Shown one piece after another: positions 6,071 to 32,653 of a stretch of 61,329 bases of DNA. The DNA is from Christensenella sp. UBA3944 (lineage in GTDB: Bacteria; Bacillota; Clostridia; Christensenellales; DTU072): positions 1 to 61,329 of the forward strand of contig DGDU01000005.1 of the NCBI GenBank assembly GCA_002385605.1. The letters are read 5' to 3'. The position numbers were made by a program, and so were the translations under genes. A model generated the notes under the pieces. It saw only the letters and a list, made by a program, of their open reading frames with translations, searched no databases and was not told the DNA's origin. Position 1 is the first letter of the stretch; each line of letters begins with the position of its first letter.

Positions 6071-9000
6071 TTACTCTTCCCCGAACAACTCGTTGTACTC
6101 CTCCATTGTTATGAGAACCTCGCGTGGCTTGGCTCCGTCCTCGGCGCTTATAAAGCCTCTGTCGGTCATGGCGTCTATAAGCTTGCGCGCCTTTATGTAA
6201 CCCACATTGTGCTTGGTTTGAGCCATAGATACCGAGGCCTTGCGCTCGAGTATAAATGTCTTTAGTATCTTGCGAAGCAGCTGCTCGAAGTCGGAATCCT
6301 TGTCGGCGGGAGCGGACGGGGCAGAGGATTCGGCCGCATCCGCGCCCTGTCCCGGCTCGGACTTGATTTGCTCGGCTAGTTTTTCGTCGAAGTCGGTTTC
6401 GTTTTTATCCTTGATATAATTGCAGACCTTCTTGATGTCCTCGGGCTCGACGAGAGAGCCTTGCAGGCGCAGGCTGATATCCTTAAAGGAGAATATCATA
6501 TCTCCCTTGCCGAGAAGGCTTTCGGCGCCGACTTCGTCCAGTATTATGCGGCTGTCCATCGCCGTCTTGACGGCAAACGCGACTCTGGCGAGAATGTTGC
6601 CCTTAATAAGCCCCGTAATTACATTCACGGTGGGGCGCTGGGTGGCAAGCACGAGGTGGATGCCGCACGCCCTGCCCAGCTGGGCTATCCTTACGATGGG
6701 CTCTTCCACCTGCCCCCTGCCCTTCATCATGAGGTCTGCCATTTCGTCCACAACAATGACTATGCGGAACATCTTGGGCTCTCTCGCCTTGTCCCTTATC
6801 TCGTTGTTGTAGTGGTCGATATCGACGGCGCCATGCTTTTCGAGGAAGCTGAACCTGTCGTCCATTATCTTTGTGAGCCTGTTGAGAAGGTTGACGGCGT
6901 GGGCGGCCTCCTTTACCGTTTCCCTTATGAGAAGGTTGGGGAGATTCTGGTATACGCTAAGCTCGACTTTCTTGGGGTCTATAAGGATGAGCCGGACATC
7001 CTCGGGCGAATACTTAAAGAGGATGCTCATTATAATCTGATTGATAAACACGCTCTTGCCCGTGCCAGTGGCGCCCGCGACAAGCAGGTGGGGCATCGAG
7101 GCAAGGTCGGCGACATAAGGCTCGCCCTCTAAGGTCTTGCCCATGGCTATCTGCACGCCCTCGTCGGTAGCCATAAATTTCTGCGAGGCGAGGATGCTCC
7201 TTAGCCCTACGATATCCCTCACCTTGTTGGGGATTTCGATACCGAAGGCGTTTTTGCCCTCTATCGGGGCAAGGATGCGAATGGATTTGACCTCCAGCCT
7301 CATTGTGAGGTTTTCCTGAAGGTTGGCGACTTTCTTTATGTTGCAGCCGGGGCCGAGTTTCAGCTCGTAGCGGGTGAATGTGGGGCCTCTCTTAGCGTCG
7401 GTGACGACGGCGGGAATGCTGAACTCCTCCATCGTCTGTTCCATCTTGGCTTTATATACGGTGAAATCCTCGGGAAAATCGCCGCCGTTGGCGGTGTACT
7501 GCTTTAGCAGGTTTAGCGGGGGCGCGTCGTACTTTTTGGGGATATAAACCTTATCCGAACCGCTTTCGAACAGGCTTTGCTGTACGGGCTTGGCGGGCGG
7601 CGCGACAACCTCCTGTTTTACATTAAAGCCCTTTCTTTCGGGCTCGGGCGTGTACCGGGGTTTGGGGGTATACGCGGGGGCCTCTGTTCTGGGCGGTGTA
7701 TACACAGGCGGCACGGGGGCCTGAGGCGTATACGCCGCGGGCTCAACCCTGGGCGGGGTGTAAGGCGTTTCTGCCCTCGGCTGGGTATATTCGGGATAAG
7801 CTGGTTTGGAAGTATACGCCGCCGGCGTTTCGGGCGCCCTGCCTGTAGGGACGGGATTGTACGGCGCGGGGATGTCGCTCCCGTAAAAATTGGGTACGGG
7901 GTTAACATTGATATCGGGCGCCTGGTACTCCTCCCTTTGCGGGTACTCTGCTCTCTGCGGGTATTCTGTCCTTTGCGGGTATTCCGCCCTGCCGGGGTAT
8001 TGCGGCTGCGGCGGCGTTTGGGCGGCGTCCTGCGGTATGTTGTATATGCTGGTATCCTCGCCCATCATCGAGAGAAATTCCTCGGGGCCGATGGGGGTCT
8101 TTATGTATTCCCTGGGGTTGGCGATAACCTTTTTGGGCTTTGGCGGGGGCGGGGGCGCTGCTTGCCTTTTGGGCTCGCCGTCCAACCTGGGCGAAAGCGG
8201 CTCGGTTACCGCGGGCGCCGGCTCGGGGTAGCTTTCGAGCTCCCTGCCCTTGGGCTCTTCCCCGGCGTAGCGGTTGATATACTCGGCGCGGTAGTCGTAA
8301 TCGCCGAAAGCCTTTCTCATCTTGTCGCGCGCCTCGTTTTCGGCCTTTGCGGCAAAATAATTCCTGCCGGCGTCGCCCAAAACCTTAAGCCTGGGCTTTT
8401 CTTCTTTGGGCGGCTCCTCGTTGCCGAACAGAATGCGCGAGCTGTCCTTTGCCTTTCTCTTGTGAAGCTCGTCGGGGCTTAACAGCGAGGAAAACAGCGT
8501 TTCTTTGGCGGCGTCGTAAGGCTCTTTTGGGGCGAAAATACGGCTTGCCGCTTCGTCCGCGGGCGTTTGCGGCGCGGTATCCTCTATATTGGACACAAAC
8601 AGCGTTTTTTCTTTGGGCAAGGGGTTTGCTGTAATTTTGGGGGCTTCGGGCTCTTTTTTCTTACGGGCGGGCCTGTCTTTGATTTTTAGGATAAAGGGGT
8701 AAATCGCCCAGAAAACAAATCCCGCCGTGACTAAAAAGGATAAGGCGAGGGAAAGCCCGAAATCCTTGAACGAAAGCACGAAGGGCGCCGAAAGAACGGA
8801 CGCGGCGGCGCCGCCCACGGTGTCTACACCTTTGAAGGGCGCCGTTATGTAATTATCTCCGCTTTCGATAAGGGATTTAGCGAGCCATATATGTAGCGTG
8901 CAGACAATTCCGGCAAAGCTTAGCACATACGACAAAAGGCGGAGCCTTCCCGCCTTTGGCTTTTTGCCGAAAATACCCAGAACGCCCAGCACAAACAGGG

Positions 9001-9160
9001 CGGGTATGTACGCGCATACAGCCCAGCCGAACAGGGCAATCATGAATTCGCGGGTGGGCCTGAGGATCATCAGCAGAGCGAGAAGGGCAACAGTCCCCAG
9101 AACAATCGCGCCCGCCTGCCTGACGCTTGATTTTTTGGTTTTTTTTGCCGACGGGGTCAT
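6071..9160 (-). CDS. ftsK: DNA translocase FtsK/SpoIIIE
   Basis: 1029 aa. It has N-terminal TM helices, a Pro/Tyr/Glu-rich linker of about 400 aa, a C-terminal motor domain (Walker A GATGTGKS, VIVVDEMADL, ATQRP) and a gamma winged-helix tail. Confidence 0.95.
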   Translation of the reverse strand: MTPSAKKTKKSSVRQAGAIVLGTVALLALLMILRPTREFMIALFGWAVCAYIPALFVLGVLGIFGKKPKAGRLRLLSYVLSFAGIVCTLHIWLAKSLIESGDNYITAPFKGVDTVGGAAASVLSAPFVLSFKDFGLSLALSFLVTAGFVFWAIYPFILKIKDRPARKKKEPEAPKITANPLPKEKTLFVSNIEDTAPQTPADEAASRIFAPKEPYDAAKETLFSSLLSPDELHKRKAKDSSRILFGNEEPPKEEKPRLKVLGDAGRNYFAAKAENEARDKMRKAFGDYDYRAEYINRYAGEEPKGRELESYPEPAPAVTEPLSPRLDGEPKRQAAPPPPPKPKKVIANPREYIKTPIGPEEFLSMMGEDTSIYNIPQDAAQTPPQPQYPGRAEYPQRTEYPQRAEYPQREEYQAPDINVNPVPNFYGSDIPAPYNPVPTGRAPETPAAYTSKPAYPEYTQPRAETPYTPPRVEPAAYTPQAPVPPVYTPPRTEAPAYTPKPRYTPEPERKGFNVKQEVVAPPAKPVQQSLFESGSDKVYIPKKYDAPPLNLLKQYTANGGDFPEDFTVYKAKMEQTMEEFSIPAVVTDAKRGPTFTRYELKLGPGCNIKKVANLQENLTMRLEVKSIRILAPIEGKNAFGIEIPNKVRDIVGLRSILASQKFMATDEGVQIAMGKTLEGEPYVADLASMPHLLVAGATGTGKSVFINQIIMSILFKYSPEDVRLILIDPKKVELSVYQNLPNLLIRETVKEAAHAVNLLNRLTKIMDDRFSFLEKHGAVDIDHYNNEIRDKAREPKMFRIVIVVDEMADLMMKGRGQVEEPIVRIAQLGRACGIHLVLATQRPTVNVITGLIKGNILARVAFAVKTAMDSRIILDEVGAESLLGKGDMIFSFKDISLRLQGSLVEPEDIKKVCNYIKDKNETDFDEKLAEQIKSEPGQGADAAESSAPSAPADKDSDFEQLLRKILKTFILERKASVSMAQTKHNVGYIKARKLIDAMTDRGFISAEDGAKPREVLITMEEYNELFGEE
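7935..8006. repeat. Four tandem 18-nt units inside the ftsK linker
   Basis: The units are ctttgcgggtactctgct / ctctgcgggtattctgtc / ctttgcgggtattccgcc / ctgccggggtattgcggc. On the coding strand they encode (A/T/E)EYPQR x4. The flanking linker is rich in YTP/PxP. Confidence 0.85.
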
Positions 9161-9162
9161 AT

Positions 9163-9552
9163 TTATGCCTTATTCTCCAGTTTATCCAGCTCGTAGCCGG
9201 TTTTTGAGGATTTTCCGTACTGGCGCAAAAAGTTTTCTTTGTTCTTTTCTATGTAGCGCTCGTACACCTCGGGGGCGTCCATGCCTATCTTAATGCACAT
9301 GCTCGCGAAGAAGTGCAGTATGTCGATAAGCTCGCCCTTTATGTTCTCGTAGTTGATTTCCTTGGGGTTTTTCCACCACTTGAAGTTGACCTCCGCGAGA
9401 AGCTCGGCAAGCTCCGAAAGCATTGCGAGAACTTCTTTTTGAATCCACTCGTCGGGGGAAATGCCTTTGAGGTTTCTCTTTTCGACTATTTCGGTGTCGA
9501 ACTTTCTCTGCAGGTCGAAAATAACCTGAAGCATATCGGGTTTTTGTTCCAT
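9163..9552 (-). CDS. Dimeric (all-alpha) dUTPase-like / MazG-like nucleotide pyrophosphohydrolase
   Basis: 129 aa. The pattern LQRKFD...EWIQKEVLAMLSELAELLAEVNFKWWK...GELIDILHFFASMCIKIGM...YIEKNKENFLRQ is typical of the dUTPase_2 family. Its stop is 2 nt from the ftsK start. Confidence 0.7.
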   Translation of the reverse strand: MEQKPDMLQVIFDLQRKFDTEIVEKRNLKGISPDEWIQKEVLAMLSELAELLAEVNFKWWKNPKEINYENIKGELIDILHFFASMCIKIGMDAPEVYERYIEKNKENFLRQYGKSSKTGYELDKLENKA

Positions 9553-9567
9553 TGTCCCTCCGCTAAA

Positions 9568-10827
9568 CTATTCCCTGAGAAGCGCGAGAGGGTCGAGCCC
9601 CGCCTCTCTGCCGACATAGCTGCAGCTTGCCTTGTCGAAATCGAGGACATCGTCGATAACCGCCTTTACGCTTTCTAAGGATATGCTTTCTATTTGCTTT
9701 AGTTTTTTGTTTATGTCGAACACATTATCCGCGAGAAGCACTTGGAGCCCGTTGGAGCGCATGATAGATACCGCCCTTTCTGCTCCGAACAGAAGCGAAC
9801 TTTTTAGCTGCTCCTTGCCCTTTTTGAGTTCTTCTTCGGTTATGCCGTTTTTCTTGAAGTCGAGAAGGACTTCCTTTACCCCCGTTACAGCTTTGCGGGC
9901 GGATTCGGGCTTGGCGGCAAGGTAAATCATGAACATTCCCGCGATTTTGTACTCGTTGTCGGTGGCGTACACATCGTATACCAAACCGTTTTCTTCCCTA
10001 AGCTTCTGGAACAGCCTTGAGGACATACCGCCGCCCAGAATGTTTGCCATAAGGTACAGCGAGGGTATACGCTTGTCGTTAAGCTTGTAGGCGGGGAAGC
10101 CGAAGGCGATGTTGCTTTGCTCGAACTGCCTTACCGACTTAAGCTGCCTGCGGAAGGCCTTTTTGCTTGCCTGGTAGGACTTTTGCGCCTGCCCGCACTT
10201 CATACGGCTTTCGAAATACTTGTCTACAAGCGCGAGCACCCTTTCGGCGTCGATGTTGCCGGCTACCGAAATTACCACATTGTCGGCACAGTAATACTGC
10301 GCCATATAATCTATGAGCATCTGGCGGGTGAAGCTCCGGATATTCTCTATCGTGCCGAGAATGGGCCTCCCAAGCCCCGTAAACCCGAAATGCGCGAGGT
10401 TAAGCTGGTCGTGGCAGACATCGGTCGGGTCGTCGTTGCACATATTGATTTCTTCGATGACGACGCCCTTTTCGTTTGCCATATTCTCTTCTGAGAGCTT
10501 AGAGTTGAAAAAGATGTCGCTTAGTATATCGAAGCATTTTTCGGTGTGCTCGTCGGTGGAAATGGTGTAATACGCCGTGCAGTCGCGCGAGGTAAAGGCG
10601 TTTATCTGGGCGCCGATGCTCTCCATATCGTTGGCTATCTGAAACGCCGAGCGATTTGAGGTGCCCTTGAACAGCATGTGCTCTATAAAGTGCGAGATGC
10701 CGCTTAGCTCCTTGGTTTCGTAGGCGCTTCCTACGCCTACATAGACGCCGGTGGCGACGACTCTCGTCTGCCTCATCGGATGAACTACTACTCTGAGCCC
10801 GCTTGAGCGTGTTATTATTTTATCCAT
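9568..10827 (-). CDS. M16 family zinc peptidase (insulinase-like, YmfH/YmfF-type)
   Basis: 419 aa. It has the inverted zinc motif HFIEH (SHFIEHMLFKGT) plus a downstream Glu region, and shows the usual ftsK-linked synteny of Firmicutes. Confidence 0.85.
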   Translation of the reverse strand: MDKIITRSSGLRVVVHPMRQTRVVATGVYVGVGSAYETKELSGISHFIEHMLFKGTSNRSAFQIANDMESIGAQINAFTSRDCTAYYTISTDEHTEKCFDILSDIFFNSKLSEENMANEKGVVIEEINMCNDDPTDVCHDQLNLAHFGFTGLGRPILGTIENIRSFTRQMLIDYMAQYYCADNVVISVAGNIDAERVLALVDKYFESRMKCGQAQKSYQASKKAFRRQLKSVRQFEQSNIAFGFPAYKLNDKRIPSLYLMANILGGGMSSRLFQKLREENGLVYDVYATDNEYKIAGMFMIYLAAKPESARKAVTGVKEVLLDFKKNGITEEELKKGKEQLKSSLLFGAERAVSIMRSNGLQVLLADNVFDINKKLKQIESISLESVKAVIDDVLDFDKASCSYVGREAGLDPLALLRE

Positions 10828-10999
10828 TAAAACCCCTCTGTCAAAGTTAGCGGAAAATTATCAGGCCTTTGGAAGCCTATTAGGCTTTTATGCATAAAGT
10901 ATATACTACTTCGCCGCTTTTTACAAGGGATTATTTGTCAGGCGCCCAAAGAATTGCCGCGGGGTCATACGCCGCCCGGAATATCAATAAAATTATACC

Positions 11000-11716
11000 A
11001 TGCGGATAAAAGATAAGGTATTTGAAAATATAGTAGCAAACCTCGTTATCGTGGCGGTTATCGCCGTGCTTGTCACGGGGGCGTTTCTTAGCGATGGCGC
11101 CGTGCCCGCCGCAGTGGGAGGCAAGGCCATCTATCACGGCAACACCTCGGAGCCCAGGGTAACCCTGATGGTAAATGTCTACTGGGGCACCGAATACATA
11201 ACACCCATGCTGGATATCTTCGACGCTTACGGCGTAAAGACCACCTTCTTCATAGGCGGTGTGTGGGCGTCGAAGAATAACGATCTGGTAAAAGAGATAA
11301 GCGCCCGCGGGCACGAGATAGGAAACCACGGCTACCTGCACTTAGACCACGGCAAGCTGTCGGAGTCCAGAAACATTGAAGAAATAGAGCTTACCTCCCG
11401 CCTCATAAAAGAGCTTACGGGGCGCCCCACAAGCCTATTCGCCCCGCCCTCGGGAGCGATAGGCAGCAATATGTTTAAGGCCTGCGAAAAGACGGGGCAT
11501 ACCGTTATCATGTGGAGCCGCGACACCATAGACTGGAGAGATAAAGATAAGGATTTGGTGTACAAAAGAGCGACAAACGGTATCCAGAACGGCGATTTGG
11601 TGTTAATGCACCCGACTGCCCACACCCTGGAAGCCCTTCCGTCGATACTTAAGTATTACAAGCAAAACGGCTTTTCGGTAACGACGGTAAGCAACAATAT
11701 AGCGCAAAGCAATTAG
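11000..11716 (+). CDS. Polysaccharide deacetylase (NodB homology domain; PdaB-like, membrane anchored)
   Basis: 238 aa. It has an N-terminal TM helix and NodB motifs TTFFIGG, HEIGNHGYLH and LMHP. No obvious SD precedes ATG 11000. Confidence 0.85.
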   Translation: MRIKDKVFENIVANLVIVAVIAVLVTGAFLSDGAVPAAVGGKAIYHGNTSEPRVTLMVNVYWGTEYITPMLDIFDAYGVKTTFFIGGVWASKNNDLVKEISARGHEIGNHGYLHLDHGKLSESRNIEEIELTSRLIKELTGRPTSLFAPPSGAIGSNMFKACEKTGHTVIMWSRDTIDWRDKDKDLVYKRATNGIQNGDLVLMHPTAHTLEALPSILKYYKQNGFSVTTVSNNIAQSN

Positions 11717-11787
11717 CTCCCGTAAATGTCGAAAAAAAGTATTATATGGTTCTTTGCGCGCCCGCACGGAGAACTAAGGCTTTTTTA

Positions 11788-11816
11788 TTGACTTAAATGA
11801 TTATTTTCTATATTAT
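11788..11816 (+). promoter_or_regulatory. Candidate sigma-A promoter for glyQS
   Basis: TTGACT (11788-11793), 17 nt, TATTAT (11811-11816). The leader is too short for a T-box. Confidence 0.4.
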
Positions 11817-11849
11817 ATTGCTATGATTATTTTCTAGGAGTGTTTTGTT

Positions 11850-13238
11850 ATGTCGAAATTAACAATGGATAAGCTTGTGGCGCTTTGCAAGGGCAGAGGC
11901 TTTATTTTCCCCGGCAGCGAGATTTACGGCGGATTGGCCAACACCTGGGACTACGGCCCCTTGGGCGTCGAGCTTAAAAACAACATAAAGCGCGCTTGGT
12001 GGAAAAAGTTCGTGCAAGAGAGCGAATACAATGTGGGAGTGGACTGCGCAATCCTTATGAACCCCACCGTTTGGGAAGCGAGCGGGCACCTTAGCGGCTT
12101 CTCCGACCCCCTTATGGACTGCAAAGAGTGCCGCAGCCGCCACCGCGCCGACAACCTCATCGAGGATTATATCGCAAAAAACAAACTGAACATAAAGATT
12201 GCGGGTTGGACAAACGAACAGATGGAAAAGTACATCGCCGACAACAAAGTTAAGTGCCCCGTCTGCGGAAACTCCAACTTTACGGGCGTACGCAAGTTTA
12301 ACCTTATGTTCAAGACTTTCCAGGGTGTCACCGAGGACTCGGCAAGCACCGTTTACCTTAGGCCAGAAACCGCCCAGGGCATATTCGTAAACTTCAACAA
12401 TGTGCTGCGCTCCTCCAGGTGCAGGGTGCCCTTCGGCATCGCCCAGGTCGGAAAGAGCTTCCGTAACGAAATTACCCCCGGTAACTTTATATTCAGGACA
12501 AGGGAGTTCGAGCAGATGGAGCTTGAGTTCTTCTGCAAGCCCGGCACCGACCTCGAATGGTTTGCCTATTGGAAGAATTTCTGCCACCAATGGCTTCTCG
12601 GCCTCGGCATCAAGCCCGAAAATTTAAGGCTTCGCGACCACGACAAAGAGGAGCTTTCGCACTACTCCAACGCCACGACAGACTTCGAGTTCCTCTTCCC
12701 CTTCGGCTGGGGCGAGCTCTGGGGCATAGCCGACAGGACGGATTTCGACCTTAAGGCGCACGCCAACAAGTCGGGCAAGTCCTTCGAGTATACCGACCCC
12801 GTCACCAACGAAAAGTATATACCCTACTGCATCGAGCCCTCGCTGGGCGTCGAGAGGTCGCTGCTTGCCTTCCTGTGCAACGCCTACGAAGAAGAGGACC
12901 TCGGCGAAGGCGACACCAGGGTTGTGCTCCGCCTGCACCACGCTCTCGCGCCTTACAAGGTCGCCGTGTTGCCCCTGCAGAAAAAGCAGCTCGGCGAAAA
13001 GGCCGAAGAGGTATACCGCAAGCTCATCAAGAAGTTCCCCGCCACCTACGACGAAACGGGCAGCATAGGCAAGCGCTACCGCCGCCAGGACGAAATAGGC
13101 ACGCCCTACTGCGTGACGGTTGACTTCGACACCCTCGAGCAGAACACCGTTACCGTGCGCGACCGCGACACGATGGAGCAAGTACGCCTTCCGATAGACG
13201 AATTGGTAAGTTACTTCGAAGAAAAACTGCAGTATTAA
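11850..13238 (+). CDS. glyQS: Glycine--tRNA ligase (alpha2 type)
   Basis: 462 aa. The N-terminus [34 protein letters not shown] and the class II motifs are typical of GlyQS. Confidence 0.95.
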
Positions 13239-13303
13239 CACAAGCGGAAAATTGTGCTAAAATGTAGTAAAAACCGGGGTTACCCGCCGTCAAGGAGGAT
13301 GCC

Positions 13304-14290
13304 ATGCAAAAAATATCAAAGAGAGGCTGGATAGAATTTGCCGCCTGCCTGGGGGCATTTATAGTACTGGCTGTTATAGCCGCAATTTGCGACCTCGAGA
13401 TTAATATCGCCCTTTATAACCCCCAAAGCCTGTACGGGCAGTTTTTCGCCAGGCTCGGCGAGCTTCCCAGCTACCTTGCCGCGCCCACGGTGGGCGTAAT
13501 CCTGTTCCATCAGGACTTCGGCAAAAACAAAACGCAAAAGATACTTCTTAAGTGCGCCTTTGCCGCCCTCATATTCGCGGGCTGGTTCTACGCCATCGGC
13601 GTGTGGTTCTGGGAGAACTTTATAAGCGAGGAAGTGGACTACGCCATAGTGTATAAGCTGTTCTTCTGCGCCGTACTTACCGCGGGCGTAATCCTCGGGA
13701 CCGCCAAAGTGGACAAAAAGGTTATGAGAAAGCTTCTCGTGCTTGCCCTCTTTATAGCGATCGCGGTGGCGGTAAGCAACCTGATTGTGCAGATTATGAA
13801 AATCCTTTGGGCGCGCCAGCGCTTCCGCACCATGGTGGACAACGAGAAAAACGCCGCTTTAATAGAGGCTTTCGTAAAGCCCAACGGCGGCGACCTCTAC
13901 CGGGGCTTTACCCCGTGGTACCGCCCCAACGCCATTTTCCGCTCGCCCGTGCACACCGACGAATACATAAGGCGTTATAAAGAGATAGACAGCGACACCT
14001 TCAAGTCCTTCCCATCGGGGCATACAGTTGCCGCGGCGGGCTCCTTCGCCCTAATTATCCTTCCCGAAATGTATAAGAAGCTTGCAAAGCACAGATGGAT
14101 GTTCTGGGTGTTCCCCGCAATATACACCGTGCTTGTGGGCATAAGCCGCATAGTTATGGGCGCCCATTACCTCTCGGATACCCTGTTCGGCGGATACATC
14201 GGCTTCGGCGTCGCCGCCCTCGCGAGATGGATTTTTGTGTCTAAGATGGATAAGATTTACGCCTGCTTCAAGATACCGCAGGAAGAATAA
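13304..14290 (+). CDS. PAP2-family membrane phosphatase
   Basis: 328 aa and polytopic. It carries the acid-phosphatase motifs KILWARQRFR, PSGHT and SRIVMGAHYLSD. SD AAGGAGG. Confidence 0.85.
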   Translation: MQKISKRGWIEFAACLGAFIVLAVIAAICDLEINIALYNPQSLYGQFFARLGELPSYLAAPTVGVILFHQDFGKNKTQKILLKCAFAALIFAGWFYAIGVWFWENFISEEVDYAIVYKLFFCAVLTAGVILGTAKVDKKVMRKLLVLALFIAIAVAVSNLIVQIMKILWARQRFRTMVDNEKNAALIEAFVKPNGGDLYRGFTPWYRPNAIFRSPVHTDEYIRRYKEIDSDTFKSFPSGHTVAAAGSFALIILPEMYKKLAKHRWMFWVFPAIYTVLVGISRIVMGAHYLSDTLFGGYIGFGVAALARWIFVSKMDKIYACFKIPQEE

Positions 14291-20873: not shown

Positions 20874-22451
20874 CTATTTTGAAAGTTGGTTTACCTCATC
20901 GGGGTAGGTTATCTCGCTTATCTGCTCGATAAACTTATCGGTGTTGCCGAGGGAGAGGGTAAAGCTCTTGAAGAAATCTGCGACGCTTACGCCCGCCTGC
21001 GCGAGGGTTTCGCTTATATCGCTGTCGGAGCATTCGCTAAGGATATAAAGGAGCTTGTCTTCACTGATACCCATAATTTCGTTATATAATCTGGGCTCGA
21101 AGCGGTAGCTCACCTGCCCGCCGTAAAGCCTTAAGTTTGCCATAAGCTGCGAAAGCACGCTTATAAAGCTTAAGTTGGGGCTGGAACCTATTTCGTCGCT
21201 TAGCATTAAGAGGAAGCGGTTAAAGTCGAAAGCCCCTTTTATGTTTTTCTCCTGCCCGCCATCTAGCCAGTTGAGGTAGATATATTTGTCCCTGTAATAG
21301 ATGGAGCAAAGCTTTTGTCCGCTTGTTTTGCCGACTACGCTTACGGCAAAGCATGTCTGGCCGGCGTTTGCTGCGTCGTAAATGAAGTCCGCCGTGACAT
21401 CGGCTTCTTCGCCGCCTCCGTCCTCTTTTGCTGTAGCGTAGATGCGGAATTTGCGGTTAGAATAGTCTACATAGTCGCCGAAGGTGTTTTCTGCGGGTAT
21501 GCCTTTAACCGATGTGTTGGAGACAAGCAGCGTTTCGGCGTTTATCTTTATGCTGAAGTCCTTGCCGAAAACGGTGTCGCCCGTCTGCATGGACTTGGCG
21601 GCGACATCCATCTTTAGTTTGGAAATTTTGCCCTCGCCGAAGCTGTCGGGGTCGCCCCCTATCGTATTGAATTCGACTTTGATAGTGGTGTCGGGGATGT
21701 TGCCGCTTTGAACATCGGCGCTGCAAATGCCTAGAATGTTTCTGAGCAGCAAATCTATCTCCTGCCCGCTTACGCCCATGGTGTCGCGCCAGGATGCGTC
21801 CATATTAACAAAGCTGGCAAGGCTCTTCGGGACATCGACATAAAAGCGGAAGTGCCTCTCGCACATATTGTTGGCAACCTTATATTCGTAATCGATGTTG
21901 CCCTTCACGCTCATAAAAGTCAAAAAGCCCATCGACACCAATGTCTTGGCGTCGGGGCTGAATCTCATCTGCAGGGGAAAGTTATCCGAAAGGTTGTAGC
22001 CCTCGATGGGTATCTTTATCTTGTTTTCCTCGAGGTTAATATATAGGTTGGTAAACCCGTTCTTCTGATACAGGTAGGCGCCAAGCTGAAGCTCGTCGTT
22101 TTCGGCGTCGCGGAACTCGAACATCGCGGCGGTATCCTGCGGGTTATTGGCAAAATAGTTGGACTTTATTAAAAGGTAGGATTTATCGTTGTTGTAGTCT
22201 ATGTTAAGCCTGATGTTGGAGGAAATTATCCTGCTGTCGGTTTCGCCCGCTTGCCTGAGGGTCTCCATAACGCCGCCGATAAGGTCATTTACCATCTCGG
22301 AAGCCGTCGTTTGGTCGCGCGTAAAGCCATCGGTCCAGAAATCATCGGGCTCGTTAGGGTCTTTGCCGGGAGGGTTAGTCCCGTTGTCGCATGCTGCGAG
22401 CAGCGGGCATATTGCCGCGATGATTAATAAAACAATCGCCAACCTTTTCAC
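20874..22451 (-). CDS. Large lipoprotein of unknown function
   Basis: 525 aa. The signal peptide has a lipobox (MKRLAIVLLIIAAICPLLAAC-DNG). I recognise no domain. It starts 10 nt after the proS stop. Confidence 0.8.
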   Translation of the reverse strand: MKRLAIVLLIIAAICPLLAACDNGTNPPGKDPNEPDDFWTDGFTRDQTTASEMVNDLIGGVMETLRQAGETDSRIISSNIRLNIDYNNDKSYLLIKSNYFANNPQDTAAMFEFRDAENDELQLGAYLYQKNGFTNLYINLEENKIKIPIEGYNLSDNFPLQMRFSPDAKTLVSMGFLTFMSVKGNIDYEYKVANNMCERHFRFYVDVPKSLASFVNMDASWRDTMGVSGQEIDLLLRNILGICSADVQSGNIPDTTIKVEFNTIGGDPDSFGEGKISKLKMDVAAKSMQTGDTVFGKDFSIKINAETLLVSNTSVKGIPAENTFGDYVDYSNRKFRIYATAKEDGGGEEADVTADFIYDAANAGQTCFAVSVVGKTSGQKLCSIYYRDKYIYLNWLDGGQEKNIKGAFDFNRFLLMLSDEIGSSPNLSFISVLSQLMANLRLYGGQVSYRFEPRLYNEIMGISEDKLLYILSECSDSDISETLAQAGVSVADFFKSFTLSLGNTDKFIEQISEITYPDEVNQLSK

Positions 22452-24585: not shown

Positions 24586-24614
24586 ATTATAATTTATTAT
24601 AAACGCGAAGTCAA
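24586..24614 (-). promoter_or_regulatory. Sigma-A promoter for the lipoprotein-proS-lipoprotein operon
   Basis: The minus strand reads TTGACT-17 nt-TATAAT, about 35 nt upstream of the 119-aa lipoprotein ATG. Confidence 0.55.
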
Positions 24615-24630: not shown

Positions 24631-27600
24631 TTATTCGGTACGCAGGGCAAGCACAGGATCTTTCTTCGCGGCGAGCGCGGCGGGGATAAGCCCGCTTATG
24701 ACGGTTATCACAAAGGACACGCCGATAAGCAGGAACTGGTGCCACCAGACGGGCCGCAGAAGGTTGTTTATGCCAAGCACCGATTTTATGACAATGTTTG
24801 CGGGGAAGGTCAGGATAAGCGCAAGGCAGACGCCCACTATGCCGCTGACAAGCCCTATTATGAAGGTTTCGGCTATAAACACGCTGGAAACATTGAACTT
24901 GCTGGCGCCCAAGGAGCGCAGAAGCCCTATTTCCTTTGTCCTGTCCTGCACCGAGATGTAAAGGATTATCGCGACAAGAAGCATCGCCACTATAACCGCT
25001 ATGGCGGCTACGCCTATGAGGATGTAGGTAATCGTGTTTATCATAGATGTCATCGAGGCGGTCATTTCGCTTAGTTCGTCGGTGTAAACCACGGTGTAGT
25101 CGATGGTGGAGTTGGCAAACTCAGCGTCCTGCATTATGCGCCTGTTGTAATTGTCTATAAACTTGATTACCTCGTTGCGCGACTCGATGGAGTAGGGATA
25201 AATATCCACGCTTACGGGCCTCATGAGATCCCTCAGGTCGAAGCCGCTCATGATAACATCGTACTGCACGGTGTCTATGTAGGCGCACTCGGCGGTGTGC
25301 GGGGCGTTGGGGCGGTGCGCGCAAACCTTGTCCTCGGCGACTGTGACATTCCTTATCTTGAAGATTTCGGCAAGCTGGTTCATAAGTTCGCTTTCGCCCT
25401 TGCTGAAGTCGAGCCCGGAAAGTATGGGCAGCATCTTTATTACGAGGTCGATTTCGCTTTCGGTGAAGTTGATGGCGAACACGCTGCGGATAAGCCCCGT
25501 CGCCGCGGTTATGTCGGCTTCGGGATATTCAAGCGTTGCCATCGCGAGCTCGACAAGCTCGATGGCGGCAGCTTGCTCGGCTTCGTCCAGCTTTACCTTC
25601 TGTAGAAGTATGAGGAAGTTGGCCATAGTCTCAAGGCTACCGTTGCCGCCGTTTTCCTGAGAGAACTCGAGTATTTCCCGAAGGGCCTGCTGCTCCTCTT
25701 CGGTGAGGTTAATCTGCCCCAAAAGGTATTGCATCCTGCTTAGCGCCTCGGCGTCCTCCTCGGTGGGGTTGAACTCCTGTATAAGCTGAACGGTCTGCCA
25801 CATCTTAAGCATACCCTCTTCGCCGGTTATCTCGTACAGCCTTGCCGCCGCCGCGAGGGTATCCCTCAAAGTGACCATATCTTCCGATTCCATATCAAGC
25901 TGCGCGCCAAGCGAAGCGAGCCCGATTGCCGTTTCGATATCCTGCCTTGTAATGCCAAGGGCACGGATAATTTCGAATGCCTCCTTGAAAGACCCGGCGT
26001 CGGCCTCGGGGACTTCGACGGCGCTAATGATATCCAAAGCGAGGTTCAGGTTATCGATATCTTCTTCGGTGAAATCCATCTCGCGAAGGATTGCCGCGGT
26101 TTCGATAAGAATCTCTATGTCTTGCTGTTCAATCATTTCCGAAAGAATCATAGCGACGGCATATAAATTTTCAAAATCCTCTTGGGTAAGCTCTATTGTG
26201 GAAAGAAGTTGAGCCGCTTCGATTACCGCCTCTATCTCGCTTTCGGTAAGCCCGAGCCCTCTTGCGAGCAATACGGCGTTGAGTATTATCTGAATATCCG
26301 AGGGAGTGGGGCTTAAGGACACCAACAGGGGCCATGCCGCGGTTATGGCGTCCCTGCTTTCGGGGGTGAGCTGATTCATAAGGGTATCGAATTCCAGACA
26401 CAATTCGGGCGTGGGCGCCGATATGAGCTGGGGCAGGAGCGCCGCCATTTCGGTAAGGATTTGCCCGTCGGAGCCGTAGTTTACGCCTCTGAATATTTGG
26501 GCTATCTGTATTACTGTTGAGATATCCTCTTGCCCGAACGAAAGCCCCTTAAGCTCGTCTATAATCTGACCTATTATTTGCGTATCTTCATAATCTATTT
26601 GGAGCGTCGCAAGAAGCCTTGCCGCCTCGTAGGCAGCCTCGGCTTCGGCTTGGGTAAGCCTAAGCCCGTTCAAAAGATTTGCGATTTCGATAAGGTTTTG
26701 GATATCTTCCTCTGTCGGGTCCATGCGCCACAGCGAAACAGCCGCCCTGGCTAAAACATCGGCGTTTTGATCCCTCGTGTCCAGATTGCTTATTATTTGG
26801 GTAACCCGGGTGATGGCGTCTATGTAGCCGTCCCTGTTTTCCAGCGTGTTTATCAGCCTTGCCAGCCTCAATATCTCGGCATATTCTTCCTCGGTGACAT
26901 CCAACTGAGCGTAAAGGCCAGCCATCCGGTTTATGATGTCGGCGTTTTCGGGAGTGAACTCGAAGCCGTACAGCCCGCCCGCGATTTCGGTAATCAGGCT
27001 TATCTGCTCCTGGGTGAGGTTAAGCTCTTCGTACGCCGCGAGTATTTCCTTAAGAAGGGTAAGCCTTCTCGTTTCGGGCATAGAGGGGAGGTAGTCTATA
27101 TCCAGCTCTATTTCGGATATACGCTTTGCGAGGTTAAGAAGAGTTTCTCTTTCGATGTCGTACCGGTTGAGGGCCTCCTTGAGCGCCTTTACAACGGGAG
27201 CGTTGTTGCCTCTCTGGATAAGGTCGCGGGCCAACGCCTCGGTGTAGCCTATCGCGCCGTTTATTACGCCTGCGTTTACGCCGTCCTTAAGGCGGAGTAT
27301 TCCCACCACCTTGACTTCGGCGCCTTCGCCCGTCTTATTGTATACGCCCGTCGCCTCGTCCAGGGCGAAGTAGTCGGTGGGGATGCGCAGCACGAAGGTC
27401 GCGGGCATTATGCCGTTTGCCTCGTCGCCAATGAATTCTTCGAAGGTGTATTCTTCCTTTACTTCGCCGGTGTTTTTGGGTATAAGCATACGGATGAAGA
27501 CATCTAACATCTTTTCGGCCTCTTCGGGAAGGAGGACACGGAAATCGTTTATTACCGTAAGCAGGAAGCTCTCGACGCTTATGGCTCCCAAAAGGAACAG

Positions 27601-29226
27601 GGTGTAGTCGTCCAACTGGTTGAACTCGTCCACAACAAGCACTATCTCGCGCTTGGCGTCCTCGGTGCCGAAGGCGGGAAGCCTGCCCGCAAGCACATCG
27701 TATTGGGCGTTAAGCAGGATTTCGTCGTCTATCATCATAGACCACGGGTTGTTCTTGTCGAACATCTCCCTGAGTTCCTGCATATCCTTGCCGTACAGCA
27801 AGGAGTTAAGCCTGCCCGAGGCGCCCGGGGCGAAAAGGTTTATGGCGGCAAGAAACCCCGAATCCTCTATAAACTTTATGAACATATCGGCGGGATTCAG
27901 CTTTGATTCATTGCCCTTGTCGTCCTTGCGGTAGATATCAAACTGCAGGTTGTAGTTGCGCATTATCGCGCCCCAGTCGGGGTTGAAATCGTTCTCCAGC
28001 GCAAGCATAAACTGATAAATATCCGTGCCGAGGCTTACCCCGAACAGCTTGCTTAAAAGGTCGTATTCGTTATCGAAATCAAAATCCTCGAGGTTCTGGA
28101 AGCCCGTGATGCCCTTTTCGATTACGGCAAGCACGAGTTTGGAGAGGAATATAAGTTCTTTGTCGGTGTACTTTTCCCTGAGCTCCTGATCCTCGCGGAA
28201 AAGCTCGAGCATAGAGTCGAGGTTTATGCTGGATGGGTCAAACCTGTTGCCCTGCTGGAAGGCCTCTTTAAGAAGGTCTATAAGCGAGGTCGTCTGGGTG
28301 GTTACTTTTATGGGGAAGCGGCTAAGGTTGTTTCTTTCGAAGTCGTTTATGTAATAGGCGAAGCCGCTGTTCATGGACAGAATAAGGGCGATACAGATTA
28401 CGCTTATCGCGCCCGAAATTATCGTCATTATAGAGCGGCCTTTTTTGTTAACAAGGTTGTTGAAGCTAAGCTTGGTGGCGGTGGCAAAGCTCATCTTGGC
28501 CCTCTTCTTCTTTTCGGGGCCCTCGGGCCCCTCCGCCGCATCGTACTGCCGTATAATCTCCTGGTCGCTTACGATAAGCCCGTCCTGCATCCTTATGATT
28601 CTGTCGGCGTACATATCGGCAAGTTCCTGGTTGTGGGTTACCAGAATTACAAGGCACTCTTTGGATATCTCTTTGAGAAGCTCCATAATTTGGACGCCTG
28701 TCTTGCTGTCTACCGCGCCCGTGGGCTCGTCTGCAAGAAGAATCTTGGGGTTGTTTACGATGGCGCGCGCTATCGCAACCCTCTGCATCTGCCCGCCCGA
28801 CATCTGGTTGGGCTTTTTGCTCACCTGGTCGCTTAGCCCTACCTTTGCTAAGGCGTCCAATACCTTTGACTTTCTTTCTTTGGCGGATACGCCCGAAAGC
28901 GTGAGGGCGAGCTCGACATTGGAGAACACCGTCATATGCGGTATGAGGTTGTACGCCTGAAACACAAAGCCTATCTGATGGTTACGGTAGTTGTTCCAGT
29001 CCTTCTCGCTGTAGCCTTTTGTGCTTTTATTGTCTATAACCAGGTCGCCCGCGGTCGCCCTGTCCAAGCCGCCAATGATGTTCATAAGCGTTGTTTTGCC
29101 GCAGCCCGAAGGCCCCAGCACGGCGACTAAGCCTTTGCCCGCGAAATCCACGGTTATGCCGTTTAGCGCCTCGACAATCTTTTCGCCTACCTTGTAATGC
29201 TTCGTGATTTTTTCCAGCCTGAGCAC
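24631..29226 (-). CDS. Fused ABC ATPase + MacB/FtsX-type permease with a giant extracytoplasmic domain
   Basis: 1531 aa, with a GTG start and SD AAGGAGA. It has Walker A GPSGCGKT, signature MSGGQ, Walker B ILLADEPT and H-loop THN. TM1 is at about aa 265-287, followed by roughly 1100 aa of non-membrane sequence, then three C-terminal FtsX-type TM helices (aa 1396-1520). Confidence 0.9.
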   Translation of the reverse strand: MLRLEKITKHYKVGEKIVEALNGITVDFAGKGLVAVLGPSGCGKTTLMNIIGGLDRATAGDLVIDNKSTKGYSEKDWNNYRNHQIGFVFQAYNLIPHMTVFSNVELALTLSGVSAKERKSKVLDALAKVGLSDQVSKKPNQMSGGQMQRVAIARAIVNNPKILLADEPTGAVDSKTGVQIMELLKEISKECLVILVTHNQELADMYADRIIRMQDGLIVSDQEIIRQYDAAEGPEGPEKKKRAKMSFATATKLSFNNLVNKKGRSIMTIISGAISVICIALILSMNSGFAYYINDFERNNLSRFPIKVTTQTTSLIDLLKEAFQQGNRFDPSSINLDSMLELFREDQELREKYTDKELIFLSKLVLAVIEKGITGFQNLEDFDFDNEYDLLSKLFGVSLGTDIYQFMLALENDFNPDWGAIMRNYNLQFDIYRKDDKGNESKLNPADMFIKFIEDSGFLAAINLFAPGASGRLNSLLYGKDMQELREMFDKNNPWSMMIDDEILLNAQYDVLAGRLPAFGTEDAKREIVLVVDEFNQLDDYTLFLLGAISVESFLLTVINDFRVLLPEEAEKMLDVFIRMLIPKNTGEVKEEYTFEEFIGDEANGIMPATFVLRIPTDYFALDEATGVYNKTGEGAEVKVVGILRLKDGVNAGVINGAIGYTEALARDLIQRGNNAPVVKALKEALNRYDIERETLLNLAKRISEIELDIDYLPSMPETRRLTLLKEILAAYEELNLTQEQISLITEIAGGLYGFEFTPENADIINRMAGLYAQLDVTEEEYAEILRLARLINTLENRDGYIDAITRVTQIISNLDTRDQNADVLARAAVSLWRMDPTEEDIQNLIEIANLLNGLRLTQAEAEAAYEAARLLATLQIDYEDTQIIGQIIDELKGLSFGQEDISTVIQIAQIFRGVNYGSDGQILTEMAALLPQLISAPTPELCLEFDTLMNQLTPESRDAITAAWPLLVSLSPTPSDIQIILNAVLLARGLGLTESEIEAVIEAAQLLSTIELTQEDFENLYAVAMILSEMIEQQDIEILIETAAILREMDFTEEDIDNLNLALDIISAVEVPEADAGSFKEAFEIIRALGITRQDIETAIGLASLGAQLDMESEDMVTLRDTLAAAARLYEITGEEGMLKMWQTVQLIQEFNPTEEDAEALSRMQYLLGQINLTEEEQQALREILEFSQENGGNGSLETMANFLILLQKVKLDEAEQAAAIELVELAMATLEYPEADITAATGLIRSVFAINFTESEIDLVIKMLPILSGLDFSKGESELMNQLAEIFKIRNVTVAEDKVCAHRPNAPHTAECAYIDTVQYDVIMSGFDLRDLMRPVSVDIYPYSIESRNEVIKFIDNYNRRIMQDAEFANSTIDYTVVYTDELSEMTASMTSMINTITYILIGVAAIAVIVAMLLVAIILYISVQDRTKEIGLLRSLGASKFNVSSVFIAETFIIGLVSGIVGVCLALILTFPANIVIKSVLGINNLLRPVWWHQFLLIGVSFVITVISGLIPAALAAKKDPVLALRTE
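25357..27030 (-). repeat. About 28 tandem, degenerate 20-codon (60-nt) repeats inside the ABC/FtsX extracytoplasmic domain
   Basis: Periodicity is at the protein level: h-x-h-T-x-E-(D/E)-h-x-x-h-h-x-h-A-x-h-h-x-G. Anchor residues fall at aa 738, 758, 778, 838, 858, 878, 898, 974, 994, 1014, 1053, 1073, 1093, 1113, 1134, 1155, 1175, 1214, 1235, 1255 and 1276. There is no exact DNA repeat. Confidence 0.7.
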
Positions 29227-29421
29227 GATGTTTCTCCTTTCTCTCCGGATAGTTTTCTTCCGTTAACTTTGCGCGGAAATATTTACCCATATATATTATA
29301 GAAGAACGCCCTCTTAGTCAATAGCTTAATAATGAATAAATAATAAATAAATTATAGGAGAGGCAAAACAAGTTGCCTTTTTTCGTTTGATTTACTTTCT
29401 TTTATCCTGTAATATGGATGT

Positions 29422-32387: not shown

Positions 32388-32653
32388 AGTGTGCTAGACG
32401 GGGAGCTAGCGGTGCCCTGTAACCTGCAATCCGCTACAGCAGGGTCGAACGCCCGCCGAGGCATATTCTATGGAAAGCCGACGGTTATAAGGAATGTTGA
32501 TCTCAAGGTCTTGTGCAATTTCGGGTCGTGAACCGTGTCAGGGCCTGACCGCAGCAGCACTAAGCGATTTACGGGATGTGCCACGAGGAAGCTTTGAGGG
32601 AGTCACCTGTAACCGTGCCGATTCGGTAGTTTATGTCGGAGCGGGTGCACACT
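32388..32653 (+). ncRNA. ffs: Signal recognition particle RNA, long Bacillus type (scRNA with Alu domain)
   Basis: The 5' segment GGGGAGCTAGCGGTGCCCTGTAACCTGCAATCCGCTACAGCAGGGTCGAA closely parallels B. subtilis scRNA. The domain IV core is GTGTCAGGGCCTGACCGCAGCAGC (compare GUCAGGUCCGGAAGGAAGCAGC). The 5' AGTGTGC pairs with the 3' GCACACT. Length is about 266 nt, followed by a T-run and a terminator. Confidence 0.88.

Follow-up and report, generated by a model that had tools for sequence, protein, structure and literature searches.

A tandem array of 28 acidic units, predicted to be helical, in the extracytoplasmic domain of a MacB/FtsX-type ABC protein from uncultured Clostridia

The stretch of 61,329 nucleotides (nt) at positions 1 to 61,329 of contig DGDU01000005.1 of Christensenella sp. 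UBA3944 (assembly GCA_002385605.1), referred to here as the window, encodes an ATP-binding cassette (ABC) protein of 1531 amino acids (aa) whose extracytoplasmic domain holds 28 tandem acidic units of ~20 residues, each predicted to form one helix and one turn. We give a probability of roughly 0.5 to the reading that this type VII ABC protein is a mechanotransmitting homodimer whose insert is specific to its lineage and resembles an alpha-solenoid, a reading in which the three-dimensional shape and the function are the inferred parts. A large outward domain is typical of the clostridial subfamily to which the protein belongs and is not new. What is new is the repeat array, which belongs to no curated family, has no structural match in the PDB and no published description that we found, and is known in seven proteins.

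The period of the array emerges from several measures. BLOSUM62 autocorrelation over aa 700-1300 rose to one sharp peak at lag 20 (+0.22, where the background was about -0.8), with weaker echoes at lags 40, 60, and 80, and no lag-20 peak was found in the flanking parts of the loop. The order lag 20 > lag 40 > lag 60 was the same in the window protein and in its distant relative from locus L006, and, judged by their residues, odd and even units do not alternate in an A/B pattern. A hidden Markov model (HMM) of the unit matched 23 times in the window protein and 19 to 25 times in real arrays, compared with 2.6 times per shuffled array. AlphaFold2 (AF2) was run on the loop, using 18 aligned sequences, and separately on the array, using five; each run returned a train of ~15-residue helices separated by ~5-residue turns, with a predicted local distance difference test (pLDDT) score mostly of 65-85 across the array and 28 helices spanning aa 739-1288. 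When units were delimited by cutting four residues ahead of each predicted helix start, the 28 units ranged from 15 to 23 aa with a mode of 20, most being exactly 20. The original prediction, made from the sequence alone, had described ~28 repeats with a strict 19-21-residue period over aa 733-1290 and had suggested by analogy that they might be helical; the count, the helical character (as predicted by AF2), and a ~20-residue period far above chance all hold, and the eight example units it quoted are found where it placed them, but the period is less strict than claimed, with a few units of 15-23 aa, and the bounds move to aa 735-1293.

A profile of 106 well-scoring units from six orthologs (those of the window species and L004, together with P0002, P0003, P0004, and P0005) gave the consensus L-[DEN]-L-[TS]-x-E-[DNE]-I-x-x-L-h-E-h-A-x-L-L. 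A hydrophobic staple combined with a capping box is a standard device at helix starts, and we interpret unit positions 3, 4, 7, and 8, which fit the pattern h-[TS]-x-x-[DNE]-h, as such a device. Positions 8, 11, 12, 15, 17/18, and 18/19 are likewise interpreted as one hydrophobic stripe of the a/d/e type, and acidic residues predominate at positions 2, 5, 6, 7, 9, and 13. Together, Leu, Glu, Ala, and Ile account for 48% of aa 700-1300. In the DNA itself, Tandem Repeats Finder made no call in the array, and only 15-32-nt matches at 60-80% were detected, several of them at spacings that are multiples of 60 nt, in agreement with the divergence already suspected. The failure to recognize the unit as a named repeat was also borne out, as searches of Pfam (to E<=10), NCBIfam, and PDB sequences with the loop and the array recovered no family; the best Pfam match had an E of 0.09, and none was to the tetratricopeptide repeat (TPR), HEAT, or ARM families.

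The remainder of the chain is that of an ABC ATPase fused to a permease (Table 1). The open reading frame (ORF; 24631-29226, reverse strand) begins with a GTG codon, with AGGAG located 8 nt 5' of it. Pfam recognized ABC_tran at aa 21-169 (E 8e-34) and FtsX at aa 1406-1524 (E 1e-15) and found no family across the ~1200 residues that separate them. All ATPase motifs are intact, namely Walker A (GPSGCGKT, aa 38-45), the Q-loop, the signature MSGGQ, Walker B with its catalytic Glu (ILLADEPT), and the H-loop (THN). Hydropathy placed three C-terminal transmembrane (TM) segments within aa 1394-1521, and the loop between TM1 and TM2, 1108 aa long, carries a large net negative charge; because this loop is so strongly negative and a Lys/Arg-rich cytoplasmic linker directly precedes TM1, the loop is predicted to lie outside the cytoplasm. 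In a comparison by hhalign, E. coli MacB aligned to TM2-4 and the coupling helix with a probability of 98% and 34% identity, the coupling helix directly after TM2 (DRTKEIGLLRSLGASK) pairing with ERTREIGIRMAVGAR of MacB. The best PDB sequence matches of the TM2-4 region were MacB, a pneumococcal Spr0695-type permease, YtrF, LolC/E/F, and FtsX. The best NCBIfam model was the fused MacB equivalog NF007826, at 251 bits against a cut-off of 966 and with only profile positions 5-291 covered, while the FtsE equivalog TIGR02673 (192.9 bits, cut-off 264.85) and the LolD equivalog of LolCDE systems, TIGR02211 (193.5 bits, cut-off 307.75), also scored below their cut-offs. From these matches, the protein is placed in the MacB/FtsX (type VII) superfamily as a half-transporter and is not MacB, FtsEX, or LolCDE proper. 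The coordinates, strand, length, four ATPase motifs, membrane topology, and assignment to a type VII protein with a very large TM1-TM2 domain are thus all as originally predicted. The accompanying view that a fused ATPase is unusual did not stand, since MacB itself carries its ATPase N-terminally fused in one mechanotransmitting chain (PMC5985334) and most relatives of the window protein are fused as well.

Table 1. Features of the ABC gene and its flanks in the window
Feature	Position (nt)	Strand	Basis
Whole ORF, 1531 aa: ABC ATPase fused to FtsX/MacB-type permease	24631..29226	-	ORF reading, Pfam, NCBIfam
Nucleotide-binding domain, aa 1-225	28552..29226	-	Pfam ABC_tran, NCBIfam, motifs read
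TM1, aa ~265-287	28366..28434	-	Hydropathy peak 263-291; AF2 long helix
Conserved alpha/beta base of the extracytoplasmic domain, aa 288-713	27088..28365	-	54-67% ortholog identity; common to 670-1060-aa relatives
Degenerate unit 0 preceding the array, aa 714-734	27025..27087	-	Unit table
Array of 28 tandem ~20-residue acidic helix-turn units (predicted), aa 735-1293	25348..27024	-	Autocorrelation, AF2, unit HMM, unit profile
Linker after the array, aa 1294-1338	25213..25347	-	AF2 pLDDT <50
Beta-alpha-beta element directly before TM2, aa 1339-1395	25042..25212	-	AF2 E1339-1344, H1347-1366, E1380-1383; ortholog identity 61-67%
TM2-TM4 and cytoplasmic coupling-helix motif DRTKEIGLLRSLGASK, aa 1396-1531	24634..25041	-	Pfam FtsX, hhalign, PDB sequence matches
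Near-consensus sigma-70-like site, TTGACT-17-TATAAT, 11/12	24586-24614	-	In the 81-nt gap from the ABC stop codon to the 119-aa gene
Weak sigma-70-like promoter candidate 5' of the ORF, TTGACT-17-TAATAT, 9/12	29293..29321	-	Consensus match only

Comparison with shorter relatives locates the array within the outward domain. Proteins P0006-P0019 and L005_924 (670-1060 aa) have the same ATPase, TM helices, and alpha/beta base at 25-36% identity; they are annotated as 'ABC transporter ATP-binding protein/permease'. The insert of ~610 aa is bounded on one side by a conserved GAIGYTEAL segment and on the other by the last beta-alpha-beta element ahead of TM2. The gap between these two spans ~670 residues in the window protein versus 60-250 in these relatives (only about 60-105 in one comparison of relatives), and their variable segment is located at this same site. 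By this alignment, the array is an insertion, both ends of which rejoin the conserved base domain. The base domain (aa 288-713) had no Pfam match even at E<=10. In the AF2 models, one strand is placed just after TM1 and the beta-alpha-beta element (VDIYPY ... YTVVY in the window protein) just before TM2, into which it leads, making this element a candidate counterpart of the second Porter half of MacB; in MacB, the place that would correspond to the insert is the junction of the Sabre and second Porter half (PMC5985334). The low-confidence linker that follows the array contains a C-x-H-x5-H-x3-C motif, CAHRPNAPHTAEC (aa 1302-1314, nt 25285-25323, reverse strand). It occurs only in the window protein, P0002, and L004, with identical spacing in all three, is missing from P0003 and P0004 through a 12-residue deletion, and is missing from P0005 as well; it could be a putative extracytoplasmic metal site or disulfide loop.

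The array is rare. A profile search of 1.84 billion representative proteins gave 50 matches at E<=1e-3 and 2 at E<=1e-30, both of them orthologs, and the seven proteins in which the array is known (the six orthologs and L006_1294) all come from uncultured Clostridia/Bacillota. The sources named for the orthologs are uncultured Clostridia or Clostridiales bacteria, and the protein names are generic throughout. The cluster of the window species comprises 23 member sequences, nearly all 1531 aa, from metagenome-assembled genomes and metagenome assemblies; the species has been repeatedly sampled in public metagenomes. Its 90%-cluster representative, P0001, is reported as 100% identical, yet at least 4 residues differ from the window translation (e.g., Q222R, F504L, K683E, and D946N). 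A search with the array profile of a word index of 5.8 billion proteins returned zero matches even though known members are included, most likely a limit of candidate selection and not evidence of absence. No locus was confirmed in a genome scan with array patterns, whereas a genome scan with the base domain gave three loci and a metagenome scan two of those contigs again; tblastn of the base domain against plasmids found no match. Three weak profile matches (P0020, P0023, and P0028) were set aside as unrelated repeat proteins, a 21-aa eukaryotic repeat and leucine-rich repeats (LRRs), that share the period alone.

Among the orthologs, identity to the window protein is 72-82% in the ATPase, 85-91% in TM2-4, 54-67% in the base outward domain, and 25-35% in the array, which is the fastest-evolving part of the protein and, by these values, evolves about twice as fast as the remaining outward domain while retaining its period. 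The six orthologs carry 28, 28, 28, 28, 26, and 20 units, collinear in the four with 28, which is consistent with the earlier suggestion that the repeats are old. Insertions and deletions always comprise complete units, a single one on two occasions in P0002 and two, four, and two of them in P0005, and the reading frames are intact. Conservation is highest in the first three and last two units, whose mean identity is 0.36-0.53. The arrays of the six orthologs carry a net charge of -61 to -107, and that of the L006 protein carries -60. To judge from these alignments, what is conserved in the array is the period, the helix-start motif, the hydrophobic stripe, and the negative charge, and not individual residues. 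Because array identity is low while frames are intact and indels comprise whole units, selection appears to act on the form of the array rather than on its sequence.

The seventh protein, L006_1294 (L006 9074-12958, forward strand, 1294 aa), is a distant relative with 36% identity in the base domain. Its 17-18 units stand in perfect 20-residue register (lag-20 autocorrelation 0.90), more regular than in the window protein. A possible parity in helix number, suggested by the even unit counts of the six orthologs, was dropped on account of these 17-18 units. The sister of L006_1294 is L005_924, with 50% base-domain identity. The L004 ortholog (8647-13629, forward strand) has 1660 aa and an array of 28 units; its extra ~130 residues lie mainly in the cytoplasmic linker that joins the ATPase to TM1, which is longer here and rich in Pro, Gln, Lys, and Ala.

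Several known systems share parts of this architecture. MacB, the type VII archetype (E. coli, A. baumannii, and A. actinomycetemcomitans; PDB 5gko, 5lil, and 5nik), has the same fused ATPase, four TM helices, and outward domain between TM1 and TM2. This domain has ~200 aa in MacB, whereas that of the window protein has 1108 aa and no MacB_PCD match; no MacA-type adaptor is encoded among the Pfam-scanned neighbors, and the MacB equivalog score is far below its cut-off, as given above. To our knowledge, the uncultured clostridial host would also have no TolC-type outer-membrane partner. FtsEX, which works with coiled-coil partners (EnvC, PcsB, CwlO, and RipC), has an FtsX-type four-TM permease in common with the window protein, and ATP-driven movement of its outward domain acts on long helical structures outside the membrane (PMC7668044, PMC6355983). 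In contrast to the fused ATPase found here, FtsE is a separate chain, and the helical element of these systems resides in a separate partner with a hydrolase or activator domain, whereas the array lies within the permease itself and no hydrolase is linked to it. The outward loop of FtsX, at roughly 100-150 aa, is also much smaller.

The Gram-positive MacB-like systems (S. pneumoniae Spr0693-0695, PDB 5xu1; B. subtilis YtrEF, PDB 9o9x; and YknXYZ) are type VII permeases of Firmicutes, and TM2-4 of the window protein resembles 5xu1 and 9o9x with E values of 1.7e-9 and 7e-9. These two are permease-only chains of 419 and 436 aa, implying a separate ATPase and much smaller outward domains, and no repeats were seen in the portions of their sequences examined. 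Such systems have roles in peptide resistance, YknXYZ with an adaptor protein (PMC5985334). BceAB-type transporters differ in having a ten-TM permease and an adjacent BceRS-like system, as opposed to four TM helices and no two-component genes near the window gene. Outside the transporters, TPR-type alpha-solenoids, such as the TPR_12 arrays of STAND NTPases, are also built of tandem helix-turn elements of ~20 residues. Apart from orthologs, the array profile matched TPR_12 arrays best (E 6e-14 to 1e-7), with LRR proteins also among the weaker matches, and hhalign aligned the array to a TPR_12 array over 305 columns with a probability of 82%, an E of 1e-5, and 16% identity. The weaker LRR and TPR_12 matches seem to be driven mainly by period and amphipathic character. 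The period here corresponds to one helix and 20 aa, whereas the TPR unit has two helices and 34-42 aa, and lag 40 is weaker than lag 20; the array is, moreover, extracytoplasmic by prediction and polyanionic, and had no Pfam TPR match at E<=10. The similarity, weak but reproducible, would fit alpha-solenoid-like packing; it offers a lead and does not prove that the array belongs to this family. In the literature searched, no helical repeat was found described for the outward domain of an FtsX-type protein.

By analogy with MacB and FtsEX, the protein would act as a homodimer, and its outward domain would be moved by ATP binding and hydrolysis by way of the TM1/TM2 stalk helices (mechanotransmission), with no substrate carried across the membrane. 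The array would fold as an alpha-solenoid-like superstructure that returns to its start, by folding back on itself or by pairing with its counterpart in the other protomer. Projection as a simple outward rod is unlikely unless the rod folds back, because both array ends rejoin the base and the first and last units are the best conserved, and the identical, one-sided stripe of units that show no A/B alternation, together with the meeting ends and the conserved terminal units, makes fold-back or pairing between protomers the expected arrangement. The array would then offer, between membrane and wall, an acidic surface or lever that is moved by ATP and binds or displaces something there, and the protein would work without an adaptor protein, a two-component system, or neighboring lipoproteins. 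It may have arisen by expansion of a short helical connector present at the same site in relatives.

A number of results weigh against this interpretation. The five array models had a mean pLDDT from 70 down to 48 and a predicted template modeling (pTM) score of ~0.5, so that the tertiary arrangement is predicted weakly. Foldseek searches of the PDB with the whole-loop and array-only models matched no solved alpha-solenoid or other fold, returning only noise matches to all-helical membrane transporters (TM-score <=~0.13, E >=0.0085, and a root mean square deviation of 27-86 Å). On the short relatives, the unit HMM gave no score above that of shuffled controls, leaving expansion from an earlier connector without statistical support; pieces that resemble the unit motif, such as LSQEELSLLL, are only suggestive. 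The sister protein L005_924 has 2-3 helices at the insertion site and no array, which implies that the array is dispensable for core activity. For the Porter and Sabre comparison, Pfam found no MacB_PCD match in the base domain, and when a seven-sequence permease profile was aligned to E. coli MacB by hhalign, TM2-4 aligned but the outward domains did not. Finally, the host organism is uncultured.

The genes around the array-bearing loci provide little constancy. In the window, the neighbors within ~4 kb encode a lipoprotein, ProS, a second lipoprotein, DUF6198, and a TMEM164-like protein. A 119-aa ORF lies 81 nt downstream of the ABC gene and a 525-aa ORF further on, both with lipoprotein signal peptides ending in AAC, and proS sits between them. 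The 119-aa gene ends 15 nt ahead of proS, with no space for a T-box leader before proS, and because of this spacing and the promoter-like site in the 81-nt gap (Table 1), it may form its own transcription unit with proS. The 525-aa predicted lipoprotein (20874-22451, reverse strand; signal peptide ending in LAAC) had no Pfam match at cut-off and no NCBIfam match. Elsewhere in the window, a bacterial large signal recognition particle RNA gene occupies 32389-32652 on the forward strand (Rfam RF01854, 181.7 bits, full length). At L001, mfd and a 911-aa gene lie upstream, and within 600 nt downstream there is one unconvincing 63-aa ORF and otherwise none of at least 60 aa, with no lipoprotein-like signal peptide. 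A divergent lgt lies upstream at L003, a gerAA-gerAC-gerAB germinant-receptor operon directly upstream at L004, which has no lipoprotein downstream, and thyA/folA downstream at L006. The gene upstream at L006 (6708-9017, forward strand) encodes 769 aa with Listeria-Bacteroides repeats (Flg_new), and its product is probably located at the surface. A paralogous fused ABC/FtsX gene and a two-component system occur at L005 alone, where two tandem fused genes (771 and 924 aa) precede those for an OmpR-type response regulator and a HAMP histidine kinase (6785-13687, forward strand). This layout resembles modules for peptide-antibiotic sensing and resistance. The two-component link was not used as evidence at the level of the family, as only L005 shows it and L006 does not. 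No neighbor is conserved across the six loci, and no gene for a MacA/HlyD-type membrane-fusion adaptor was found among the scanned neighbors of the window gene, L001, L004, L005, and L006; the ABC gene thus appears to act alone.

A more specific form of the mechanism, which we put forward only tentatively, is that each repeat contributes a single helix to a new class of extracellular alpha-solenoid. In the homodimer, this would be an acidic superhelix, closed or paired, that the ABC motor would move to open, close, or sweep in the wall zone, binding and displacing a cationic ligand or wall component and taking the place of FtsEX-type coiled-coil partners. Our most concrete guess for a ligand is cationic peptides or metal ions. 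The same charge invites a different view, namely, that the selected property is dense negative charge as such and that the array serves as an electrostatic trap or shield, with cationic antimicrobial peptides, bacteriocins, or divalent cations caught near the membrane and then expelled by a MacB-type bellows motion, or simply kept off the membrane. A net charge of -60 to -107 in all seven arrays despite 25-35% identity, the acidic unit positions, the two-component layout at L005, and the protection that Gram-positive MacB homologs give against peptides (PMC5985334) are all consistent with this possibility. However, the two-component link exists at one locus of seven, where the protein has no array, the strictly kept helix-capping and hydrophobic pattern exceeds what a charge sponge needs, and the canonical Ca-binding loop is absent from the array, leaving this, the main rival reading, a doubtful alternative.

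It is improbable that the array is instead a neutral expansion, a permissive surface connector grown by unit duplication that has no function of its own. The array is indeed the fastest-evolving part of the protein, unit number varies (roughly 2-3, 17-18, 20, 26, and 28), the family is rare, and L005_924 does without an array. Nevertheless, an open frame of ~1.7 kb has been kept in seven lineages while the DNA repeats diverged past detection, four of the six orthologs retain exactly 28 collinear units, and the capping box, hydrophobic stripe, and charge are all conserved; it is because frame, unit number, motif, and charge are retained that we regard this alternative as the less likely one.

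The original prediction proposed an elongated stalk or scaffold reaching through the wall or spore layers, possibly working with the lipoproteins encoded downstream; taken as a rigid stalk that passes force to these lipoproteins, this now seems very unlikely. The array is helical by prediction and extracytoplasmic, both downstream ORFs have lipoprotein signal peptides, relatives are spore forming, and the germinant-receptor operon adjoins the L004 ortholog, all of which would suit such a stalk. Yet the array is an insertion anchored at both ends in the base domain, with its terminal units the best conserved. Only the 119-aa lipoprotein gene is immediately downstream, not both as had been thought; a strong promoter-like site separates it from the ABC gene, and proS separates it from the 525-aa gene. 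L001 and L004, the two orthologous loci whose downstream sequence is readable, have no lipoprotein there, L006 has thyA downstream, and neighbors differ at every locus, all of which argues against the proposed partnership, and no evidence ties the protein to spores. As for disordered low-complexity sequence or an artifactual period, the biased composition is the one feature that would favor it, and it is scarcely credible given the sharp lag-20 peak, the position-specific residue profile, the 28 predicted helices at pLDDT 65-85, and the excess of HMM matches over shuffled arrays.

The value of the finding is limited by the size of the family, seven proteins, all from uncultured organisms, and by the sister protein that lacks the array. 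Type VII ABC proteins turn cytoplasmic ATP hydrolysis into extracellular movement, with the outward domain setting the target, and a 560-residue acidic array of 28 predicted helices within this domain is an extreme case. The simple and regular unit, especially in the 17-18 phased units of the L006 protein, also lends itself to structural work or protein design. Should the motor indeed move the array, a Gram-positive envelope would hold a compact, naturally occurring lever or trap that is driven by ATP outside the cell, and the catalogue of solenoid folds would gain a one-helix repeat family.

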